NCBI RefSeq assembly: GCF_038049925.1
Contig: NZ_CP145809.1
Coordinates: 2,180,599-2,204,598 of the forward strand
DNA length: 24,000 nt
Source of the DNA: Georgenia sp. M64
GTDB lineage: Bacteria; Actinomycetota; Actinomycetes; Actinomycetales; Actinomycetaceae
Direction: 5' to 3'
The notes beneath the pieces are model-generated. The model searched no databases. It was not told the origin of the DNA and saw only the letters and a list, made by a program, of their open reading frames with translations. Shown piece after piece: positions 1,980 to 20,088 of the stretch (within the stretch, counting starts at the first letter, position 1; the number at the start of each line of letters is the position of its first letter). The position numbers and the translations under genes were made by a program.

Positions 1980-3242
1980 TCAGCCGGCGATCTCGGACTG
2001 GAGGTTGCCGATCATCGTGTCCCAGCGCTCCACCGGGGGCACCGTGCCGTTGATGATGTCGACCTCGGCGCCGCCCCACCACTCCCAGACGGCAGCCATC
2101 TCGGGCAGCGCGGGCATGGGGGCGCCGGTCGCGCCGGCCTCGTTGAAGCCCGCGAGGATCGGGTCCTCGAGCGCCTCGGCGGCCTCGGTCATCGCCGGCA
2201 CACGGCCGCCGATGTTGTACAGCTCGGTCTGGACCTCGGGGGTCGCGACGAAGTTGACGAGGAAGTCGTTGACGAGGAGGGCGTTCTCGGAGTTGATGTT
2301 CGGGAAGAAGCCCTGGACGCCCACGAACGGCTGGGCCTCCTCACCGCCGGCGCTCGGCACCGGCAGGACGGAGATGTCCAGCCCGGCCTCGGTGAACTCG
2401 GTGGTGTACCAGGGGCCGGTGATGATGTAGGGCGTCTCGCCGGCGAGGAACGCCTCCTTGGCGACGTCCGCGGAGATGTTCGTGTCGAGGATGCCCGCCT
2501 CGCCCTGCGCCGCGAGGAACTCGGCGAACGCCTGGCCCTCGGGGCCCGCCATGCCGAGCTCGGCGGTGTAGGACCCGCCGTCGCTGACGAAGACGGGGGC
2601 GCCGAAGGAGGTCTGCAGCGGGTACAGGTGGTACGGGTCGCTGCTGGTCGGGTCCTGCTGGATGACGATCGGGTACTCCGAGCCGGTCTCCTGGGCCGCG
2701 GCGATCATCTCGTCCCAGGTCTCGGGCGTCTCGGAGAGGATCTCGTTGTTGCGGACGAGCGCGATGTTCTCGATGGCGTACGGCACGCCGTAGACCTGGC
2801 CGTCGTAGGTCACGGCGTTGAGGGCCGACTCGGAGAAGAGGTCGGCCTTCTCACCGAGGTCGACGGTGCCGACGACGCCGTTGGTGACCCAGCCGCCCAG
2901 GCCGTCGTGGGCCGAGACGATGATGTCCGGGCCCTCGCCGGTCGGCACGGTGGTGATGAACTCGTTGCCGATGTCGGCCGAGGCCTTCTGCACGACCTCG
3001 ATCTCGACGCCGCTCTGCTCGGCGTACTGGGTGCCGATCTCCTCGACGAGGTCGATCCGGGTCTCGTCGGCCCAGATCGTCAGGGTGCCGGTGAGCTCCG
3101 GCGCCTCGGTGCCGGCCTCGGTCGTCCCCTCAGCCGCGGGGGCTGCGGTGGTCTCGTCGTCGGTGGCGTCGCCGCCCCCGCCGCACGCGGCAAGCGCCAT
3201 GGTCATGCCGACCGCGGCCGCAAGGGTGATGCTCCGTCGCAT
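1980..3242 (-). CDS. malE: Sugar (maltose/maltodextrin-type) ABC transporter substrate-binding lipoprotein
   Basis: ORF 1980..3410. Signal peptide with lipobox (MRRSITLAAAVGMTMALAAC-GGGG) followed by a family-1 solute-binding fold. It lies directly upstream of malF/malG. Start set to ATG 3242, 6 nt after AGGAG. ATG 3248 abuts the SD and is less likely. Confidence 0.8.
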   Translation of the reverse strand: MRRSITLAAAVGMTMALAACGGGGDATDDETTAAPAAEGTTEAGTEAPELTGTLTIWADETRIDLVEEIGTQYAEQSGVEIEVVQKASADIGNEFITTVPTGEGPDIIVSAHDGLGGWVTNGVVGTVDLGEKADLFSESALNAVTYDGQVYGVPYAIENIALVRNNEILSETPETWDEMIAAAQETGSEYPIVIQQDPTSSDPYHLYPLQTSFGAPVFVSDGGSYTAELGMAGPEGQAFAEFLAAQGEAGILDTNISADVAKEAFLAGETPYIITGPWYTTEFTEAGLDISVLPVPSAGGEEAQPFVGVQGFFPNINSENALLVNDFLVNFVATPEVQTELYNIGGRVPAMTEAAEALEDPILAGFNEAGATGAPMPALPEMAAVWEWWGGAEVDIINGTVPPVERWDTMIGNLQSEIAG

Positions 3243-3351
3243 CGTCATCTCCTGTAACAGTTGTTGGATGGGTTTCTCTCCCGGTCGCCCTGCGGTGCCA
3301 GCACCGCGGGGAGCCCGATGTGAAAGAGAGTAGGCATGTCGGTAGCCAGAC

Positions 3352-3411
3352 TGCAACAACTTGCAGTAACTTTCAGGCAACAGTTTCATGACAGCCGTGC
3401 AGGGTTGCACG
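3352..3411. promoter_or_regulatory. Candidate MalR (LacI-family) operators in the malE/malR divergent intergenic region
   Basis: Perfect inverted repeat CTGCAA-caac-TTGCAG at 3352-3367; it contains the heptamer CTTGCAG at 3361-3367. A second palindrome, GTGCA-gggt-TGCAC, is at 3398-3411. Both lie between the malE start (3242) and the malR start (3438). Confidence 0.5.
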
Positions 3412-3437
3412 CAGGAACCAGGAGTGGGTCAGTGGCC

Positions 3438-4469
3438 ATGCAAGGGCGCACCAGGCTTACCGACGTCGCCGAGCAGGCCGGCGTCAGCACGGCGACGGTC
3501 TCTCGGGTCCTCAACGGCAAACCCGGCGTGGCGGGCGAGACCCGCCGGGCGGTCCTCGCCGCGCTCGACATGCTCGGCTACGAGCGGCCCGAGAAGCTGC
3601 GATCACGGTCGAACGGGCTCGTCGGTCTGGTGGTGCCCGAGCTGAGCAACCCCGTCTTCCCCGCGTTCGCGCAGTCGATCGAGACCATGCTCGCCACCAC
3701 GGGCTACACGCCGCTGCTGTGCACGCAGTCCCCCGGCGGCATCACGGAGGACCAGTACGTCGACATGCTCCTCGAGCACGAGGTCGACGGCATCATCTTC
3801 GTCTCGGGCCTGCACGCCGACACCCACGCCGACCCGGCCCGCTACCAGCGACTGCAGGAGCGTGGCGTCCCGATCGCCCTCATCAACGGCCACAACCCCG
3901 AGATCGACGCCCCGGCCTTCTCCACCGACGACCGCGGCAGCATGGACCTGGCGGTGCGCCACCTCGTCTCCCAGGGCCACCGCACCATCGGCCTGGCCAT
4001 CGGCCCGGACCGGTTCGTCCCGGCCCGCCGCAAGCGCGACGGCTTCGTCGAGGCCATGCGGAACTACCTCGACGTGTCCGACCCGGCGATCGTCAGCACC
4101 CTGTTCACCGTCGAGGGGGGCCTCAGCGCGGGCACATCGCTCATCGACCTCGGGTGCACCGCGATCATCTGCGGGTCCGACCTCATGGCGCTCGGCGTCG
4201 TGCGGGCCGCCCGTGCCCGGGGCCTGCGGGTGCCCGAGGACCTCTCCGTCATCGGGTACGACGACTCGGCGCTGATCCCGTTCACGGACCCGCCGCTGAC
4301 GACCATCCGTCAGCCGGTCGAGGCCATGTGCCAGGCCGCCGTCACCACGCTCGTCGCCGAGATCGGTGGTTCGAGGGTTCCTCGCACGGAACTGGTGTTC
4401 GTGCCCGAGCTCATCGTCCGCGGCTCGACCGCGGCCGCGCCGGGCAACGTCGTGGGGCTGGCGATCTAG
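3438..4469 (+). CDS. malR: LacI-family transcriptional repressor (maltose regulon type)
   Basis: ORF 3336..4469. N-terminal HTH (RLTDVAEQAGVSTATVSRVLNGKPGV) plus a periplasmic-binding-protein-like sugar-binding core. Divergent from malEFG. Start at ATG 3438; in-frame GTG 3432 is an alternative, 8 nt after AGGAG. Confidence 0.85.
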   Translation: MQGRTRLTDVAEQAGVSTATVSRVLNGKPGVAGETRRAVLAALDMLGYERPEKLRSRSNGLVGLVVPELSNPVFPAFAQSIETMLATTGYTPLLCTQSPGGITEDQYVDMLLEHEVDGIIFVSGLHADTHADPARYQRLQERGVPIALINGHNPEIDAPAFSTDDRGSMDLAVRHLVSQGHRTIGLAIGPDRFVPARRKRDGFVEAMRNYLDVSDPAIVSTLFTVEGGLSAGTSLIDLGCTAIICGSDLMALGVVRAARARGLRVPEDLSVIGYDDSALIPFTDPPLTTIRQPVEAMCQAAVTTLVAEIGGSRVPRTELVFVPELIVRGSTAAAPGNVVGLAI

Positions 4470-4590
4470 CCCGTCGACCGCGTTCCGGGCACCTTCCGCC
4501 ATCAGCCGAGGGGGCGTGCGGCCGGCCCGGCTGGCCTCCGCGCGCCGACGGCGTCAGGATGGTCGGTCGGCGACGGCGGGTCACGCCTCG

Positions 4591-4662
4591 CCCCAGCACC
4601 CCAGCACCCCAGCACCCCAGCACCCCAGCACCCCAGCACCCCAGCACCCCAGCACCCCAGCA
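4591..4662. repeat. Perfect 8-bp microsatellite (CCCCAGCA) x 9
   Basis: Counted directly: nine uninterrupted copies, 72 bp. The array ends 8 nt before the GGAG (4671-4674) that precedes the aglA ATG at 4679. The complement is (TGCTGGGG)9. Confidence 0.97.
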
Positions 4663-4678
4663 CCGACCCAGGAGATCG

Positions 4679-6466
4679 ATGTCCACCCTCACCCGTGCCG
4701 AGCTGACCGTCCACACCCCCACCGAGGGACGTGCCACCTGGTGGCGCGAGGCGGTCATCTACCAGGTCTACCCCCGCTCCTTCGCCGACGGTGACGGTGA
4801 CGGCATCGGCGACCTGCCCGGCATCACCGCACGGCTGGACCACCTGGCGGCGCTCGGCGTGGACGCCGTGTGGCTCTCGCCCTTCTACCGCTCCCCGCAG
4901 GCGGACGCCGGCTACGACGTCGCCGACTACCGCGACGTCGACCCGCTGTTCGGCACCCTCGCCGACGCCGACGCCCTCCTCGCCCGGGCGCACGACCTCG
5001 GCCTGCGCGTCATCGTCGACCTCGTGCCGAACCACACCTCGGACGAGCACGAGTGGTTCGCCGCGGCGCTCGCCGCCGGTCCCGGCAGCCCCGAACGGGC
5101 TCGCTACATCTTCCGCGAGGGCAACGGCGAGACCGGTGAGGAGCCCCCGAACAACTGGGAGTCCGTCTTCGGCGGCCCCGCGTGGACCCGGGTGCGCGAC
5201 CGCGCCGACGCCCCGGGCAGCGCCTGGGCCGAGGACGGGCAGTGGTACCTCCACCTGTTCGACTCCAAGCAGCCCGACCTGGACTGGGAGAACCCCGAGG
5301 TCCGGGCCGAGCTCGAGGACGTCCTGCGCTTCTGGCTCGACCGCGGCGTCGACGGCTTCCGCGTCGACGTCGCGCACGGCCTGGTCAAGGCCGCCGGCCT
5401 GCCCGACTGGGCGGGGCACGTGAGCATGGTCGAGGGCGCCGAGGACGCGGGTGACACCGATCCCGAGCCGCCCGCGGTCCGCTCCCCCGAGGGTCACCAC
5501 GCCCACCCGCCGATGTTCGACCAGGAGGGGGTGCACGAGATCTACCGCGACTGGCACCGGGTTCTCGCGGAGTACCCGGGCGACCGGGTGCTGGTGGCGG
5601 AGGCGTGGGTGGACCCCGTCGAGCGCCTCGCGCGGTACGTCCGCGCCGACGAGATGCACCAGGCCTTCAACTTCGCCTTCCTCGTCTCCCCCTGGCACGC
5701 CCCCGAGCTGCGCGACGTCATCGCCCGTTCCTACCGGGCCAACGACGCCGTCGGGGCGCCGACGACCTGGGTCCTGTCGAACCACGACGTCGTCCGGCAC
5801 GCCTCCCGGCTGGGCCTGGCCCGTACCGGCAAGGGCCCCAACGGCATCGGCGCCACGGACCCGCAGCCCGACGCCGAGCTCGGTCTTCGCCGGGCCCGCG
5901 CCGCCACGCTGCTCATGCTGGGGCTCCCGGGCTCGGCGTACCTCTACCAGGGCGAGGAGCTGGGGCTGCCCGAGCACACCGAGCTGCCGGACGAGACGCG
6001 TCAGGACCCGGCGTTCTTCCGCACCGGCGGGGCCGAGCGCGGCCGCGACGGGTGCCGGGTGCCGCTGCCCTGGGAGCAGGACGCGCCCGGGTTCGGCTTC
6101 TCCCCCACCGGCCGCACCTGGCTGCCGCAGCCTTCCGAGTGGGCCGACCTGGCTGCCGACACCCAGAGCGGCCGGCCCGGCTCGACCCTCGAGCTGTACC
6201 GCGAGACGCTGCGCCTGCGCGCGGAGCTCGGGCTGGGGCTGGGGTCGATGTCGTGGAGCGCCGGGCACGCGACGAGCCCCGACGTCGTCGCGTTCGTCAC
6301 CACGGGCGCGGCCGAGGTCCTCGTCCTGACGAACCTCGGCGACACGGACGTCGCCCTGCCGGCCGGGTGGAGCGTGCTCGTGGCCAGCGGTCCGCTCGGC
6401 GAGGGTGCCGGCGGCGAGGCGACCACCGTGCCGGCCGACACCACGGTGTGGGCGCGGCGCAGCTGA
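4679..6466 (+). CDS. aglA: GH13 alpha-glucosidase / oligo-1,6-glucosidase
   Basis: The real start is inside ORF 3719..6466: GGAG-N4-ATG at 4679, giving MSTLTRAEL...WWREAVIYQVYPRSFADGDGDGIGDL. GH13 conserved regions are present (DLVPNHTS, GFRVDVAHG, EAWV, SNHDVVRH). Confidence 0.9.
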   Translation: MSTLTRAELTVHTPTEGRATWWREAVIYQVYPRSFADGDGDGIGDLPGITARLDHLAALGVDAVWLSPFYRSPQADAGYDVADYRDVDPLFGTLADADALLARAHDLGLRVIVDLVPNHTSDEHEWFAAALAAGPGSPERARYIFREGNGETGEEPPNNWESVFGGPAWTRVRDRADAPGSAWAEDGQWYLHLFDSKQPDLDWENPEVRAELEDVLRFWLDRGVDGFRVDVAHGLVKAAGLPDWAGHVSMVEGAEDAGDTDPEPPAVRSPEGHHAHPPMFDQEGVHEIYRDWHRVLAEYPGDRVLVAEAWVDPVERLARYVRADEMHQAFNFAFLVSPWHAPELRDVIARSYRANDAVGAPTTWVLSNHDVVRHASRLGLARTGKGPNGIGATDPQPDAELGLRRARAATLLMLGLPGSAYLYQGEELGLPEHTELPDETRQDPAFFRTGGAERGRDGCRVPLPWEQDAPGFGFSPTGRTWLPQPSEWADLAADTQSGRPGSTLELYRETLRLRAELGLGLGSMSWSAGHATSPDVVAFVTTGAAEVLVLTNLGDTDVALPAGWSVLVASGPLGEGAGGEATTVPADTTVWARRS

Positions 6467-14137: not shown

Positions 14138-15650
<1,513 letters not shown>

Positions 15651-15668: not shown

Positions 15669-15699
15669 GAGGGGCCTCCCGCACTGCGGGAGGCCCCTC
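15669..15699. terminator. Strong hairpin between convergent rpf and uppS
   Basis: GAGGGGCCTCCCGCA (15669-15683) / C / TGCGGGAGGCCCCTC (15685-15699): perfectly complementary 15-nt arms. Confidence 0.7.
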
Positions 15700-15814
15700 G
15701 TCGTTCGCGCCGCGGGCCCTCGTCGTTGGCGCGGGACGCCCTCGTCGTTTCGCGCGGCGGGCCGTCGTCGTACGGGTGGGTGGCCCTTCGTCGTCGTGCG
15801 GGCGATGGCCCTAG
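15692..15814. repeat. Degenerate ~23-bp tandem array (5 copies + partial) downstream of uppS
   Basis: Copies start at 15692, 15715, 15738, 15760 and 15782. All share the core GGCCC(T)(T)CGTCGT. A sixth partial copy, GGCCCT (15807-), runs into the uppS stop (CTA 15811-15813). The first copy overlaps the 3' arm of the terminator hairpin. Confidence 0.7.
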
Positions 15815-17402: not shown

Positions 17403-19160
17403 TCAGCGCCCGGCGCGGTTGACCGCCGAGACGATGGCCTTGAAGGACGCGGTCATGGTCGAGGGGTCGATGCCCACGCCCCACAGCACCTGTCCACCCA
17501 CCTCGCACTCGACGTACGAGGCGGCGGTGGCGTCCCCGCCCTCGGACAGCGCGTGCTCGGCGTAGTCGAGCACGTGGACCTCCACGCCCACCTCGCCGAG
17601 GGCGTTGACGAACGCGTCGATCGGGCCGTTACCGGTGGCGGCGAGGACCTTCTCCTCCCCGCCGTCGACGAGGGTCACGGTGAGGACCGCGTCGGTGCCC
17701 TCCCCCGCCGTCGTGAGGGTGGTGCCCTTGAGAGCGAAGCGGCCCCACGGCTCGAGGCCCATCGCGGCGGTGTGCGGCAGGTACTCGTCGGCGAAGATCG
17801 ACCAGAGCTGCTCGGCGTCGATCTCCCCGCCGTAGGCGTCGGTGTGCTTCTGGACGATGCCGGACAGCTCGATCTGCAGGCGGCGGGGCAGGTCCAGGTG
17901 CCGGGTCGAGGAGAGCAGGTAGGCCACCCCGCCCTTGCCGGACTGGGAGTTCACCCGCACGACCGCCTCGTAGCTGCGGCCGACGTCCTTGGGGTCGATC
18001 GGGAGGTACGGCAGCTCCCAGACGACGGCCTCCTCGGCGCCGCCGGCCGCCGCGACCTTCTCCGCGCGGGCCGTGAAGCCCTTCTTGATGGCGTCCTGGT
18101 GCGAGCCGGAGAAGGAGGTGTAGACGAGGTCGCCGCCGTAGGGGTGGCGGGGGTGGACGTCCATCTGCGTGCAGGCCTCGACGGTGCGGCGGATCCCGTC
18201 GATGTCGGAGAAGTCGATCATCGGGTCGATGCCCTGGCTGAAGAGGTTGAGGCCGAGCGTGATGAGGTCGACGTTGCCGGTGCGCTCGCCCTGGCCGAAG
18301 AGGCAGCCCTCGACCCGGTCGGCGCCCGCGAGCAGCCCCAGCTCGGCCGCCGCGACACCCGTGCCGCGGTCGTTGTGCGGGTGCAGCGACAGCGCGACGT
18401 GCTCGCGCCGGGTGAGGTTGCGGCTCATCCACTCGATCTGGTCGGCGTAGACGTTGGGGGTGGCCCGCTCGACCGTGGCCGGGAGGTTGAGGATGATCTC
18501 CCGGCCGGGCTCGGGCTGCCAGACGTCCATGACCGCCTCGCAGACGGCGAGGGCGAAGTCCAGCTCGGTGTCGACGAAGATCTCCGGGGAGTACTGGTAG
18601 CCGAAGACGGTCTCGTCGCCGAGGACCTTCTCGGCGTAGGCCAGGACCTCGCGCGTGCCGGCGACGGCGAGCTCCTGGGTGGCCTCGCGGTCGTTGTGGA
18701 AGACGATGTCACGGAAGACCGGGGCGGTGGCGTTGTACAGGTGCACACTCGCCCGGGGGAAGCCGACGAGGGAGTCGATGGTCCGGTGGATGAGCTCGGG
18801 CCGCGCCTGGGTCAGGACCGAGACGGTGACGTCGTCGGGCACCGCGTCGTCCTCGACGAGCGAGCGCACGAAGTCGAAGTCGGTCTGCGAGGCGGCCGGG
18901 AAGCCGATCTCGATCTCCTTGTAGCCCATCGTCACGAGCAGGTCGAACATCCGGCGCTTGCGCTCGGCGTTCATCGGCTCGATGAGGGACTGGTTGCCGT
19001 CACGCAGGTCGGTGGAGAGCCAGCGGGGGGCACGGGTGGTGCGGCGGGTCGGCCACTGCCGGTCGGGCAGGTCGACCGGGTTGACCTCCACGAAGGGCCG
19101 GTACTTCGACACCGGCATGGCGGAGGGCTGCTGGGCGCTGATGCGGTCTGCGGTCTTCAT
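17403..19160 (-). CDS. leuA: 2-isopropylmalate synthase (long actinobacterial LeuA type)
   Basis: ORF 17403..19160. Sequence MPVSKYRPF...WLSTDLRDGNQSLIEPM, with HPHNDRGTGVAAAELG, plus the C-terminal regulatory domain. Confidence 0.95.
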   Translation of the reverse strand: MKTADRISAQQPSAMPVSKYRPFVEVNPVDLPDRQWPTRRTTRAPRWLSTDLRDGNQSLIEPMNAERKRRMFDLLVTMGYKEIEIGFPAASQTDFDFVRSLVEDDAVPDDVTVSVLTQARPELIHRTIDSLVGFPRASVHLYNATAPVFRDIVFHNDREATQELAVAGTREVLAYAEKVLGDETVFGYQYSPEIFVDTELDFALAVCEAVMDVWQPEPGREIILNLPATVERATPNVYADQIEWMSRNLTRREHVALSLHPHNDRGTGVAAAELGLLAGADRVEGCLFGQGERTGNVDLITLGLNLFSQGIDPMIDFSDIDGIRRTVEACTQMDVHPRHPYGGDLVYTSFSGSHQDAIKKGFTARAEKVAAAGGAEEAVVWELPYLPIDPKDVGRSYEAVVRVNSQSGKGGVAYLLSSTRHLDLPRRLQIELSGIVQKHTDAYGGEIDAEQLWSIFADEYLPHTAAMGLEPWGRFALKGTTLTTAGEGTDAVLTVTLVDGGEEKVLAATGNGPIDAFVNALGEVGVEVHVLDYAEHALSEGGDATAASYVECEVGGQVLWGVGIDPSTMTASFKAIVSAVNRAGR

Positions 19161-19165
19161 CGGTT

Positions 19166-19316
19166 CCTCGTCGCTCGTGCGTGATGGCCGGGCACGACGA
19201 CCGCCGCGACGAGGGGCCGGCCGTCAGTTGGCCTCGTCGCGGCAGAGAAGGAGCAGCTGGTGCTGCACGGACCTGCGCACATCACGAGGCTACCGCCCGC
19301 GGTGGGCACGAGTCAC
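19166..19316 (-). promoter_or_regulatory. leuA leader: putative promoter, Leu leader peptide and alternative hairpins (attenuator)
   Basis: On the minus strand: -35 GTGACT (19316-19311), an 18-nt spacer, -10 TAGCCT (19292-19287), then GTG 6 nt later. Arm A GCCGCGACGAGG (19243-19232), arm B CCTCGTCGCGGC (19214-19203) and arm C GCGACGAGG (19174-19166) follow. Arm C overlaps the leuA SD. B is complementary to both A and C. Confidence 0.6.
19224..19280 (-). CDS. Putative leucine leader peptide (18 codons: M/V-RRSVQHQLLLLCRDEAN)
   Basis: Hand translation of the reverse complement of 19224-19280. Four consecutive Leu codons, CTG CTC CTT CTC (19256-19245), come immediately before hairpin arm A. The stop, TGA 19226-19224, lies in the A/B loop. 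An in-frame GTG at 19268 is an alternative start. Confidence 0.55.
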   Translation of the reverse strand: MRRSVQHQLLLLCRDEAN

Positions 19317-19340
19317 CTTCCGGACGGGGTCGTCTCAGCA

Positions 19341-19458
19341 TTCAGGTGGTCGCCGGCGTTCAGGTGGTCGCGGTCAGCTGGGCGCGCCCTGTGGTCGGCC
19401 GCGCTCAGGTGGCGGCCGGCGTTCCAGGCGGTCGCCGGCGTTCAGGTGGTCACCGGTC
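19341..19458. repeat. 18-19-bp repeat family TTCAGGTGGTCGCCGGCG (2 + 3 copies)
   Basis: Copies at 19341-19358, 19359-19376, 19404-19421, 19422-19440 and 19441-19458. They are degenerate at 1-6 positions (A2 is the most diverged). A 27-bp unique segment splits the two clusters. Confidence 0.75.
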
Positions 19459-19539
19459 AGGCGGCGGAGTCGCGGTGACTACGGAGGAACCGGGGTGGGT
19501 CAGCCCGTCCGGCGCACCGGACTCACCCCGCTTCATCCT

Positions 19540-19623
19540 GAGTCGCCGAGGTGGGGGCGTGATTCGCCGAGGTGGGGGCGTGCTTCGCCGGGGAGGAGGC
19601 CTGACACGCCGAGGAGGGGCCTT
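19540..19623. repeat. 21-bp tandem repeat x4 (GAnTCGCCGAGGTGGGGGCGT)
   Basis: Copies at 19540-19560 and 19561-19581 match 20/21. Two more diverged copies are at 19582-19602 and 19603-19623. Confidence 0.8.
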
Positions 19624-19637
19624 GTCAGGGTCGGGAC

Positions 19638-19687
19638 GTGTCAGGGCACTCGGCTCATCGTGGTGTCAGGGCACCCGGCTCATCGTG
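19638..19687. repeat. 25-bp tandem duplication that includes the stop codon of the 140-aa gene
   Basis: GTGTCAGGGCACTCGGCTCATCGTG (19638-19662) and GTGTCAGGGCACCCGGCTCATCGTG (19663-19687) differ by 1 mismatch. The functional stop (TCA 19666-19668 on plus) lies in copy 2. An inverted copy of the TGTCAGG core, CCTGACACG, is at 19600-19608. Confidence 0.9.
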
Positions 19688-20088
19688 ATCGGTGGCGGGA
19701 TCTCCCCCGCCCAGCCCACCGGCGCGAGGGGGATCCGCCCGTCGCGGGCACGGGCGTCGAACTCCTCGCTCAGCCGCACGAGCTCACGCTGGCGCGTGTA
19801 CCCCGTGGAGCCCGCCCGGAACTGCCGCACGAGGAGCCAGCCGGCGAGCGGGAACGCGACGGCGAGGACGAGCCAGCCCACCGCGAGGCCGGACATGATC
19901 GAGGCGAGCCCCATGAGCACCACACCGGCGACCAGGCCGGCGCCGATGGTGCGCAGGGAGAAGGCGCGCGAGACCCCGTCACCCGTCACCGCGTGGAACT
20001 CCGCCCAGGCGCGTGCGCGGAACTCGGCGACGGAGCCGGCGTCCTCGGGAGCGCGTCCCGGCACACCACCGCGCCGCGCCCCGCTCAT
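19666..20088 (-). CDS. Small two-TM membrane protein of unknown function (candidate immunity/accessory protein of the T7SS cassette)
   Basis: These are the last 140 codons of ORF 19666..21504. ATG 20088 is preceded by GGAGGAGG and overlaps the stop of the upstream gene (ATGA). Two hydrophobic helices (TIGAGLVAGVVLMGLASIMSGL and AVGWLVLAVAFPLAGWLLV). The rest of the 612-aa ORF is an out-of-frame artefact. Confidence 0.65.
   Translation of the reverse strand: MSGARRGGVPGRAPEDAGSVAEFRARAWAEFHAVTGDGVSRAFSLRTIGAGLVAGVVLMGLASIMSGLAVGWLVLAVAFPLAGWLLVRQFRAGSTGYTRQRELVRLSEEFDARARDGRIPLAPVGWAGEIPPPITMSRVP

Follow-up and report, generated by a model that had tools for sequence, protein, structure and literature searches.

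The DNA analysed here, which we call the window, is a stretch of 24,000 nucleotides from the soil bacterium Georgenia sp. M64, a member of the Micrococcales and not a streptomycete. It contains the gene layout malE <- -> malR -> aglA, where the names 'malR' and 'aglA' are given by analogy. The features with which we are concerned are the following:

1980-3242, minus strand: gene for a sugar-binding, lipoprotein-type SBP ('malE' in the layout)
3438-4469, plus strand: 'malR', gene for a LacI-family regulator of 343 aa (Pfam LacI and Peripla_BP_3; orthologues of 343 aa)
4477-4516, plus strand: 40-nt spacer segment, delimited by alignments, present in M64 and in the SRR11888059 lineage, missing from G. 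muralis
4525-4575, plus strand: invariant 51-nt block, delimited by the alignment of three array-bearing lineages
4559-4561, plus strand: upstream ATG, sharing the aglA frame in M64 only and not considered a start codon
4591-4664, plus strand: octanucleotide microsatellite or VNTR, (CCCCAGCA)9 followed by CC (TRF, sequence, shuffles, alleles in relatives)
4665-4678, plus strand: junction from the array to the start codon, with the Shine-Dalgarno (SD) sequence AGGAG (4670-4674) and a 4-nt spacer, invariant in 3/3 lineages
4679-6466, plus strand: 'aglA', gene for a GH13 alpha-glucosidase of 595 aa with its true start at ATG 4679 (alpha-amylase family, Pfam PF00128, 2e-100)

The malR reading frame spans positions 3336-4469, and its real start is ATG 3438, as in the orthologues of 343 aa; its stop codon is found 209 nt 5' of the aglA ATG, which delimits the malR-aglA spacer. 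AglA is 100% identical to a Georgenia sp. M64 database protein (P0121, glycoside hydrolase family 13, 595 aa) and 94% identical to its G. muralis homologue, while a further candidate homologue (P0122) was dropped, being a C-terminal fragment. Exact look-ups of the 595-aa AglA, of an extended form of 635 aa (see below) and of the long MalR reading frame matched no record. A scan of positions 3200-4900 found neither a sigma-70-like consensus promoter nor an intrinsic terminator, and no operator-like palindrome was found in the malR-aglA spacer. The divergent malE-malR spacer, which is AT-richer, contains a perfect palindrome, ACTGCAA-caac-TTGCAGT, at 3350-3367, then related AACTTTCAGG/CAACAGTTTCA motifs, and G. 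muralis has the identical sequence over this stretch; the palindrome is probably a LacI/MalR operator. A role of the array spacer as MalR operator was rejected, since it contains nothing like the ACTGCAA-N4-TTGCAGT of the malE-malR region.

Directly 3' of the malR stop codon, the segment 4477-4516 is an indel, absent from both G. muralis strains. The block at 4525-4575, directly 5' of the array, is unchanged in all three array-bearing lineages, although the flanking genes reach a third-position identity of no more than 0.87-0.94. This means that something there is constrained. The block is a candidate for the aglA promoter or for a regulatory element, and a weak promoter-like pair, TGGCCT-17-CAGGAT, is located inside it at 4532-4560.

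The array and its alleles in Georgenia

At 4591-4664, TRF reports a period of 8, 9.2 copies, 100% matches, 0 indels and a score of 148, which is the highest of the 57 rows for the 24-kb window. With its flanks the array reads cg(CCCCAGCA)9CCGACCCAGGAGATCGATG: the ninth unit ends at 4662 and is followed by the 8 nt CCGACCCA, by GGAG (4671-4674), by ATCG and by ATG 4679. The initial annotation had described nine perfect 8-bp units ending 8 nt 5' of GGAG-N4-ATG, and both the sequence and TRF confirm that this geometry is exact. When a probe of two units was searched with up to 2 mismatches, it had 8 matches in the window, all within the array; on 100 dinucleotide-preserving shuffles the mean number of matches was 0.05, and 0/100 shuffles reached 8. 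Made of perfect head-to-tail copies of a unit within the 1-9 bp range of such repeats, far above chance, the array is an SSR. No match to Rfam at or above the gathering score was obtained anywhere in the 24-kb window, a metagenome scan for the junction between array and SD gave 0 matches, and a literature search with the raw octamer returned primer noise only. To our knowledge, an 8-bp G4-capable unit has not been described so far in Georgenia.

Other repeats are present in the window. The ~530 nt 5' of leuA (19161-19690; leuA is at 17403-19160, minus strand) are packed with degenerate tandem repeats, namely an 18-mer x6.9 (19341-19456), a 21-mer x3.9 (19539-19619) and a 25-mer x2 (19638-19687), with no Rfam match. 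A 30-bp x2.6 repeat (15363-15439, 93% identity) is located in an Rpf-like gene (14902-15612), between the Transglycosylase and LysM domains, and a 22/45-bp array (15686-15801) occupies the convergent spacer before an undecaprenyl-diphosphate synthase gene. In the 3' part of aglA, (GCTGGG)3.2 at 6226-6244 encodes LGLGLG and shows 7-bp complementary matches to the array core CCCCAGC, at a distance of ~1.56 kb in one mRNA; this complementarity is probably a coincidence.

The following alleles were found at the orthologous site:

Georgenia sp. M64 (the window): 9 copies
G. muralis OZ336861 (L001): 5 copies
G. muralis type strain RKRA01 (L128): 5 copies
Logan assemblies SRR11888059 and SRR11888060 (L129 and L130): 4 copies each

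In every allele (9, 5, 5 and 4 copies) the array is perfect and uninterrupted. The DNA of malR and aglA is 95-97% identical among the three array-bearing lineages, and the array is a VNTR, its copy number differing at an orthologous site with conserved flanks. Slipped-strand variation of the copy number had been put forward for this array, with a comparison of relatives as the way to check it, and this comparison bears it out: the number varies from 4 to 9. The SD-side junction of the array is identical in 3/3 lineages; the 5' junction of G. muralis differs from that of M64, and the SRR lineage has flanks of the M64 type. The two G. muralis strains differ by 1 nt in malR and both have 5 copies, and the SRR11888059 and SRR11888060 assemblies both have 4. 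As near-identical strains share their copy number, the rate of length change is not extreme. At this divergence we would expect ~7 substitutions over 144 nt of arrays (our own estimate), and 0 were seen. This indicates that the arrays are homogenised faster than they are mutated (or else selected); purifying selection could also be the cause of the perfection of all alleles.

One might suspect an artefact of sequencing or assembly, so that the array or its copy number would not be real. Arrays of short units are error-prone, and a G. muralis contig from Logan (L002) breaks off within the array. We nevertheless find this explanation scarcely credible, as five assemblies, made independently and covering three lineages, all have the array at the same site with identical SD junctions. 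For the 4-copy allele the source is short-read k-mer assembly (31-mer graph); its periodic run of 34 nt is shorter than k plus the period, and by this reasoning it should assemble without collapse.

The octamer array is absent from four more distant Georgenia (yuyongxinii, TF02-10, soli and AZ-5), whose AglA is 72-79% identical and which keep the malR->aglA order with C>G spacers of 195-267 nt. Present in M64 and in the 5-copy and 4-copy lineages and absent from these four, the array appears to be a young VNTR. At the position of CCCCAGCACCGACCCAGGAG in M64, TF02-10 has CCCCGACCAGCACCAACCCGAGAAGGAG, which on the strength of one short similarity is a plausible seed for the expansion.

The same octamer in other bacteria

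An exact scan for (CCCCAGCA)3, with one genome per species, gave matches in at least 120 other species; the matches listed include Streptomyces, other Actinomycetota, Acidobacteriota, Chloroflexota, cyanobacteria and Proteobacteria. Among these matches, arrays of 3 to 11 copies number 62, 28, 14, 9, 5, 3, 0, 2 and 1 respectively. The fall-off with copy number is roughly geometric, and nine copies belong to the top few per cent of the arrays listed. In the same DNA, 7 other arrays of 7-9-bp units with at least 6 copies were counted in 874 kb, and arrays of 6-9-bp units with as many copies amount to ~8 per Mb. The initial annotation had called perfect repeats of this length rare in high-GC actinobacterial intergenic DNA: this is a fair description, but the rarity is not extreme.

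The arrays listed are almost always intergenic, and 107/120 of them are flanked by decayed in-register copies. In these decayed copies the C-tract positions match at 0.69-0.79 vs 0.65-0.90 for the AGCA positions, and CCCC is kept intact in 28% and AGCA in 37%. At 100 high-GC loci, where coding regions were called from GC3, spacers of every type were found (co-directional 32 + 20, divergent 19, convergent 16), and upstream of a gene the C-rich strand coincided with the sense strand 55 times vs 41 (p=0.18). The downstream genes are unrelated (FAD oxidase, DAO-family oxidase, class I tRNA synthetase, TPS exoprotein, ThiE, FAA hydrolase, ThiC). A survey of at least 120 species with no preference for a strand or a type of gene and no preservation of the G tracts argues against a general function, and we rejected a general strand- or G4-specific one, which the absence of orientation bias, of a common downstream family and of G-tract preservation does not allow. 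As far as these sequences can tell, the pattern looks like the signature of sporadic birth and decay of microsatellites, unlike that of a conserved strand-specific element or of a selected G4.

Some of these arrays have particular neighbours. In L053 (minus strand; TPP 3589-3479, array 3255-3232), (CCCCAGCA)3 is located between a TPP aptamer and the start of a DAO-family thiO-like gene; in L116 (TPP 2879-3003, array 3074-3097) it is located between a TPP aptamer and the start of thiC, 3' of the intrinsic terminator of the riboswitch. A third array is found 5' of thiE (L093), where the end of the contig cuts the upstream region. At three other loci (L009 2353-2460, L099 (rc) 449-560 and L121 1926-2050) the array abuts an element of ~65 nt with terminal inverted repeats GATCTTGCACTTTCTG ... 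CAGAAAGTGCAAGATC, and L009 has two such elements in tandem, with another C-rich microsatellite between them. From its sequence, this element looks like a palindromic element of the MITE/REP type flanked by microsatellites.

Possible effects of the array on aglA

The array is placed 5' of the SD and of the real start codon, which shows that it is not translated. A different possibility had been raised in the initial annotation, where translation from ATG 4559 would add an N-terminal extension to AglA and couple its frame to the number of units. Taken further, the copy number modulo 3 would set either an AglA extended by 40 aa or an out-of-frame uORF that overlaps the start of aglA. M64 itself fits this arithmetic: ATG 4559 is 120 nt 5' of ATG 4679, in frame and with no stop codon (the translation is MVGRRRRVTPRPSTPAPQHPSTPAPQHPSTPAPQHRPRRS-M...), and this ATG belongs to the invariant 51-nt block. 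The coupling itself does not stand. Over the four genomes the two ATGs are 120, 83, 83 and 80 nt apart, which places them in one frame only in M64, and in G. muralis the upstream ATG opens an ORF of 36 codons which ends out of frame inside aglA. No SD was found 5' of ATG 4559, nor any TANNNT placed for a leaderless start. The GC3 of the 40 codons from this ATG is ~0.73 vs 0.88-0.99 in real genes, and the 40-aa peptide has no hydrophobic core for a signal peptide. All of the aligned AglA homologues (9/9) begin at the Met of 4679, none of them having an extension, and the identical 595-aa database protein of M64 starts there too. The array is thus unlike an in-ORF SSR switch, whose repeats follow a functional start codon and precede the remainder of the ORF. 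Hence, we rejected the extension and the frame coupling, which we regard as very improbable and close to refuted. Readings of the array as a protein linker or as a telomere were likewise rejected, the array being internal and non-coding.

The minus strand of the array reads (TGCTGGGG)9, with nine G4 tracts and TGCT loops (G4N4), and is a canonical G-quadruplex motif (at least 4 tracts of at least three G, with loops of 1-7 nt). Neither strand of the 24 kb has another G>=4 x4 motif, and G3-type motifs number six in total; the mean G4Hunter score of the array is -2.0 over 4591-4662, and it is the longest G4Hunter region in the window. With G4-aware folding and DNA parameters, two tandem four-layer G4s are predicted at -52.7 kcal/mol, vs 0 without the G4 terms, and with these parameters no hairpin of the G-rich strand competes (0 kcal/mol); the C-rich DNA strand is predicted to be unstructured by a model which does not treat i-motifs. 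The earlier description of the array as a G4 former is therefore confirmed for the motif, and the folding is an in-silico prediction. A length-preserving variant of the array which breaks the G tracts is (CCTCAGCA)9. The G4 tracts and 4-nt loops recall the (T4G4)n of Oxytricha and canonical G4 motifs, and the nine tracts of the array suffice for two tandem G4s. The loops are however TGCT and not T4, and the array, unlike the telomere overhang of Oxytricha, is internal double-stranded chromosomal DNA, known as a predicted motif only.

On the RNA side, the leader containing the array is predicted to be ~70-75% unpaired, and in RNA folding the accessibility of the SD and of the AUG is nearly constant from 0 to 12 units. 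At the 5' junction M64 and G. muralis each have a potential hairpin, of different build, which does no better than shuffled sequences (z -1.3 and -0.45 respectively). No other tract of the window, whichever strand is read, is as strongly biased to C over G as the array region: its 78 nt contain 49 C and 10 G (z=5.1), and it scores 0.50 vs 0.33 for the next best. A rut site is defined as a stretch of RNA of at least 70-80 nt that is free of structure and of ribosomes, rich in C and poor in G, and in which the C are regularly spaced (PMC6407284). The array of M64 fits this composition, being ~74 nt long, C-rich (62%), G-poor (12%), unstructured, with regularly spaced C and untranslated after a stop codon. 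Natural rut sites are not tandem repeats, unlike the array, and the arrays of the relatives are only 34-45 nt long.

These properties suggest two ways in which the length of the array might act on aglA. On the DNA, the (TGCTGGGG)9 template strand could fold into one or two G4s, possibly with an i-motif opposite, and, depending on K+ or on supercoiling, block or modulate RNA polymerase on its way into aglA. The window's only motif of its kind, directly 5' of the SD on the template strand and with two stacked G4s and no hairpin competitor in the predictions, is what one would look for. Yet the support is purely in silico, and the folded form has to compete with double-stranded DNA in a duplex of 73% GC. 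C4 tracts usually need an acidic pH to form an i-motif. The decayed copies in other species do not spare the G tracts, and no strand preference relative to genes is seen. In Mycobacterium smegmatis, moreover, genes with a PQS in the gene itself, in the promoter or in intergenic DNA, whichever strand it was on, did not change their expression in response to G4 ligands (PMC8931766). We consider an action of this kind quite improbable.

On the RNA, (CCCCAGCA)n could be a rut site tuned by its copy number in the malR-aglA spacer: Rho would be loaded more readily on a longer array, and at times of poor occupancy of the aglA RBS this would depress the transcription of aglA compared with that of malR. 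The composition and the predicted lack of pairing speak for it, and the malR-aglA spacers are C>G in all six Georgenia (C 0.43-0.47, G 0.30-0.37). That neither a promoter, nor an intrinsic terminator, nor an operator-like palindrome appears in the spacer is compatible with co-transcription, and in two unrelated genomes the array is placed between a TPP riboswitch and the start of a thi gene. However, with 4 or 5 copies the array is too short, so that a full-length rut would exist in M64 alone; the C-rich strand is not significantly the sense strand in other bacteria, where convergent spacers have the array too; and an initiating ribosome would partly cover the array, the SD being 8 nt 3' of it. 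We regard Rho loading as unlikely. A broader possibility, in which the array would be a heritable attenuator, tunable by its copy number, between the gene of a regulator and that of an enzyme, seems to us improbable as well.

Origin and meaning of the array

The MIRU-VNTR loci of mycobacteria and the short tandem repeats of M. leprae are intergenic, belong to high-GC Actinomycetota, vary in copy number between strains and are used as typing markers. The array shares with MIRU-VNTR its intergenic position, its strain-variable copy number and its high-GC host; its unit is 8 bp long and that of MIRU 40-100 bp. Its nearest look-alikes in sequence are the cyanobacterial STRR heptamers, with the unit CCCCAGT, which like the array are C-rich tandem units of 7-8 bp in intergenic or intercistronic DNA. 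No function is known for these intergenic or intercistronic heptamers (PMC2670836). The array is not a member of the STRR, which have 7 bp and many dispersed copies in filamentous cyanobacteria, whereas here the unit has 8 bp, one array is found in 24 kb and the host is a Georgenia.

A contingency locus with a simple repeat of the intergenic or 5'-UTR type is known from Haemophilus influenzae, where the heptamer (ATCTTTC)n is found upstream of hmw1A and hmw2A, and more repeats mean less expression (PMC12721329, PMC8262952); the RNA of the repeat forms with a G-rich arm a long hairpin, which is cleaved by RNase III and controls expression (PMC12721329). The array resembles this system in having a perfect tandem unit of 7-8 bp before a start codon, probably in the leader, and polymorphic among close relatives; its place in the leader is compatible with an influence of repeat length on expression. 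It differs from it in that its RNA is predicted to be mostly unpaired, with a flat accessibility of the SD, in that aglA encodes a cytoplasmic sugar hydrolase and not a surface antigen, and in that near-identical Georgenia strains do not differ in copy number.

All this leads us to think it likely that the array is a young, slippage-driven VNTR in the non-coding malR-aglA spacer and that any effect it has on aglA is no more than graded. The array would have expanded in the G. muralis/M64 clade, probably from a C-rich leader motif (CCAGCACC[A/G]ACCC, just 5' of the SD), and would change its length by replication slippage. This turnover would be faster than point mutation, so that the alleles stay perfect, and too slow for near-identical strains to differ. 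The array would presumably be transcribed, giving the aglA leader or the malR-aglA intercistronic RNA a C-rich tract free of structure, and the G-quadruplex-capable DNA complement of the array may add to its instability. A change of length would cause at most a graded shift of aglA expression, and would neither switch the gene on or off nor alter its product. Most likely the array is nearly neutral, and any effect on aglA would probably be graded, through Rho acting on the C-rich leader or through a G4 on the template strand. The invariant 51-nt block, taken together with the strongest C>G tract, may reflect a regulatory role of the leader as a whole.

This well-bounded 8-bp VNTR, found in a little-studied actinobacterial genus, can be used as a marker for strain typing in the G. 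muralis/M64 clade. It is also a warning for assemblers, one short-read contig breaking at the array, and for annotators, whom the open frame through the array invites to a false N-terminal extension of 40 aa.

If the array were an attenuator after all, the passage from 4-5 to 9 units would make a full-length Rho-loading tract, a double G4, or both. The malR:aglA ratio would then be reset, and a free-living actinobacterium would have a 'tuning knob' for its sugar catabolism; the (CCCCAGCA)n arrays of at least 120 other species would be a recurrent source of such knobs. Should its length tune aglA through Rho or a G4, tuning by SSRs would extend from host-adapted pathogens to the housekeeping catabolism of soil Actinomycetota, and the alleles of 4, 5 and 9 units would form a natural allelic series for the effects of G4s and rut sites in a high-GC bacterium.
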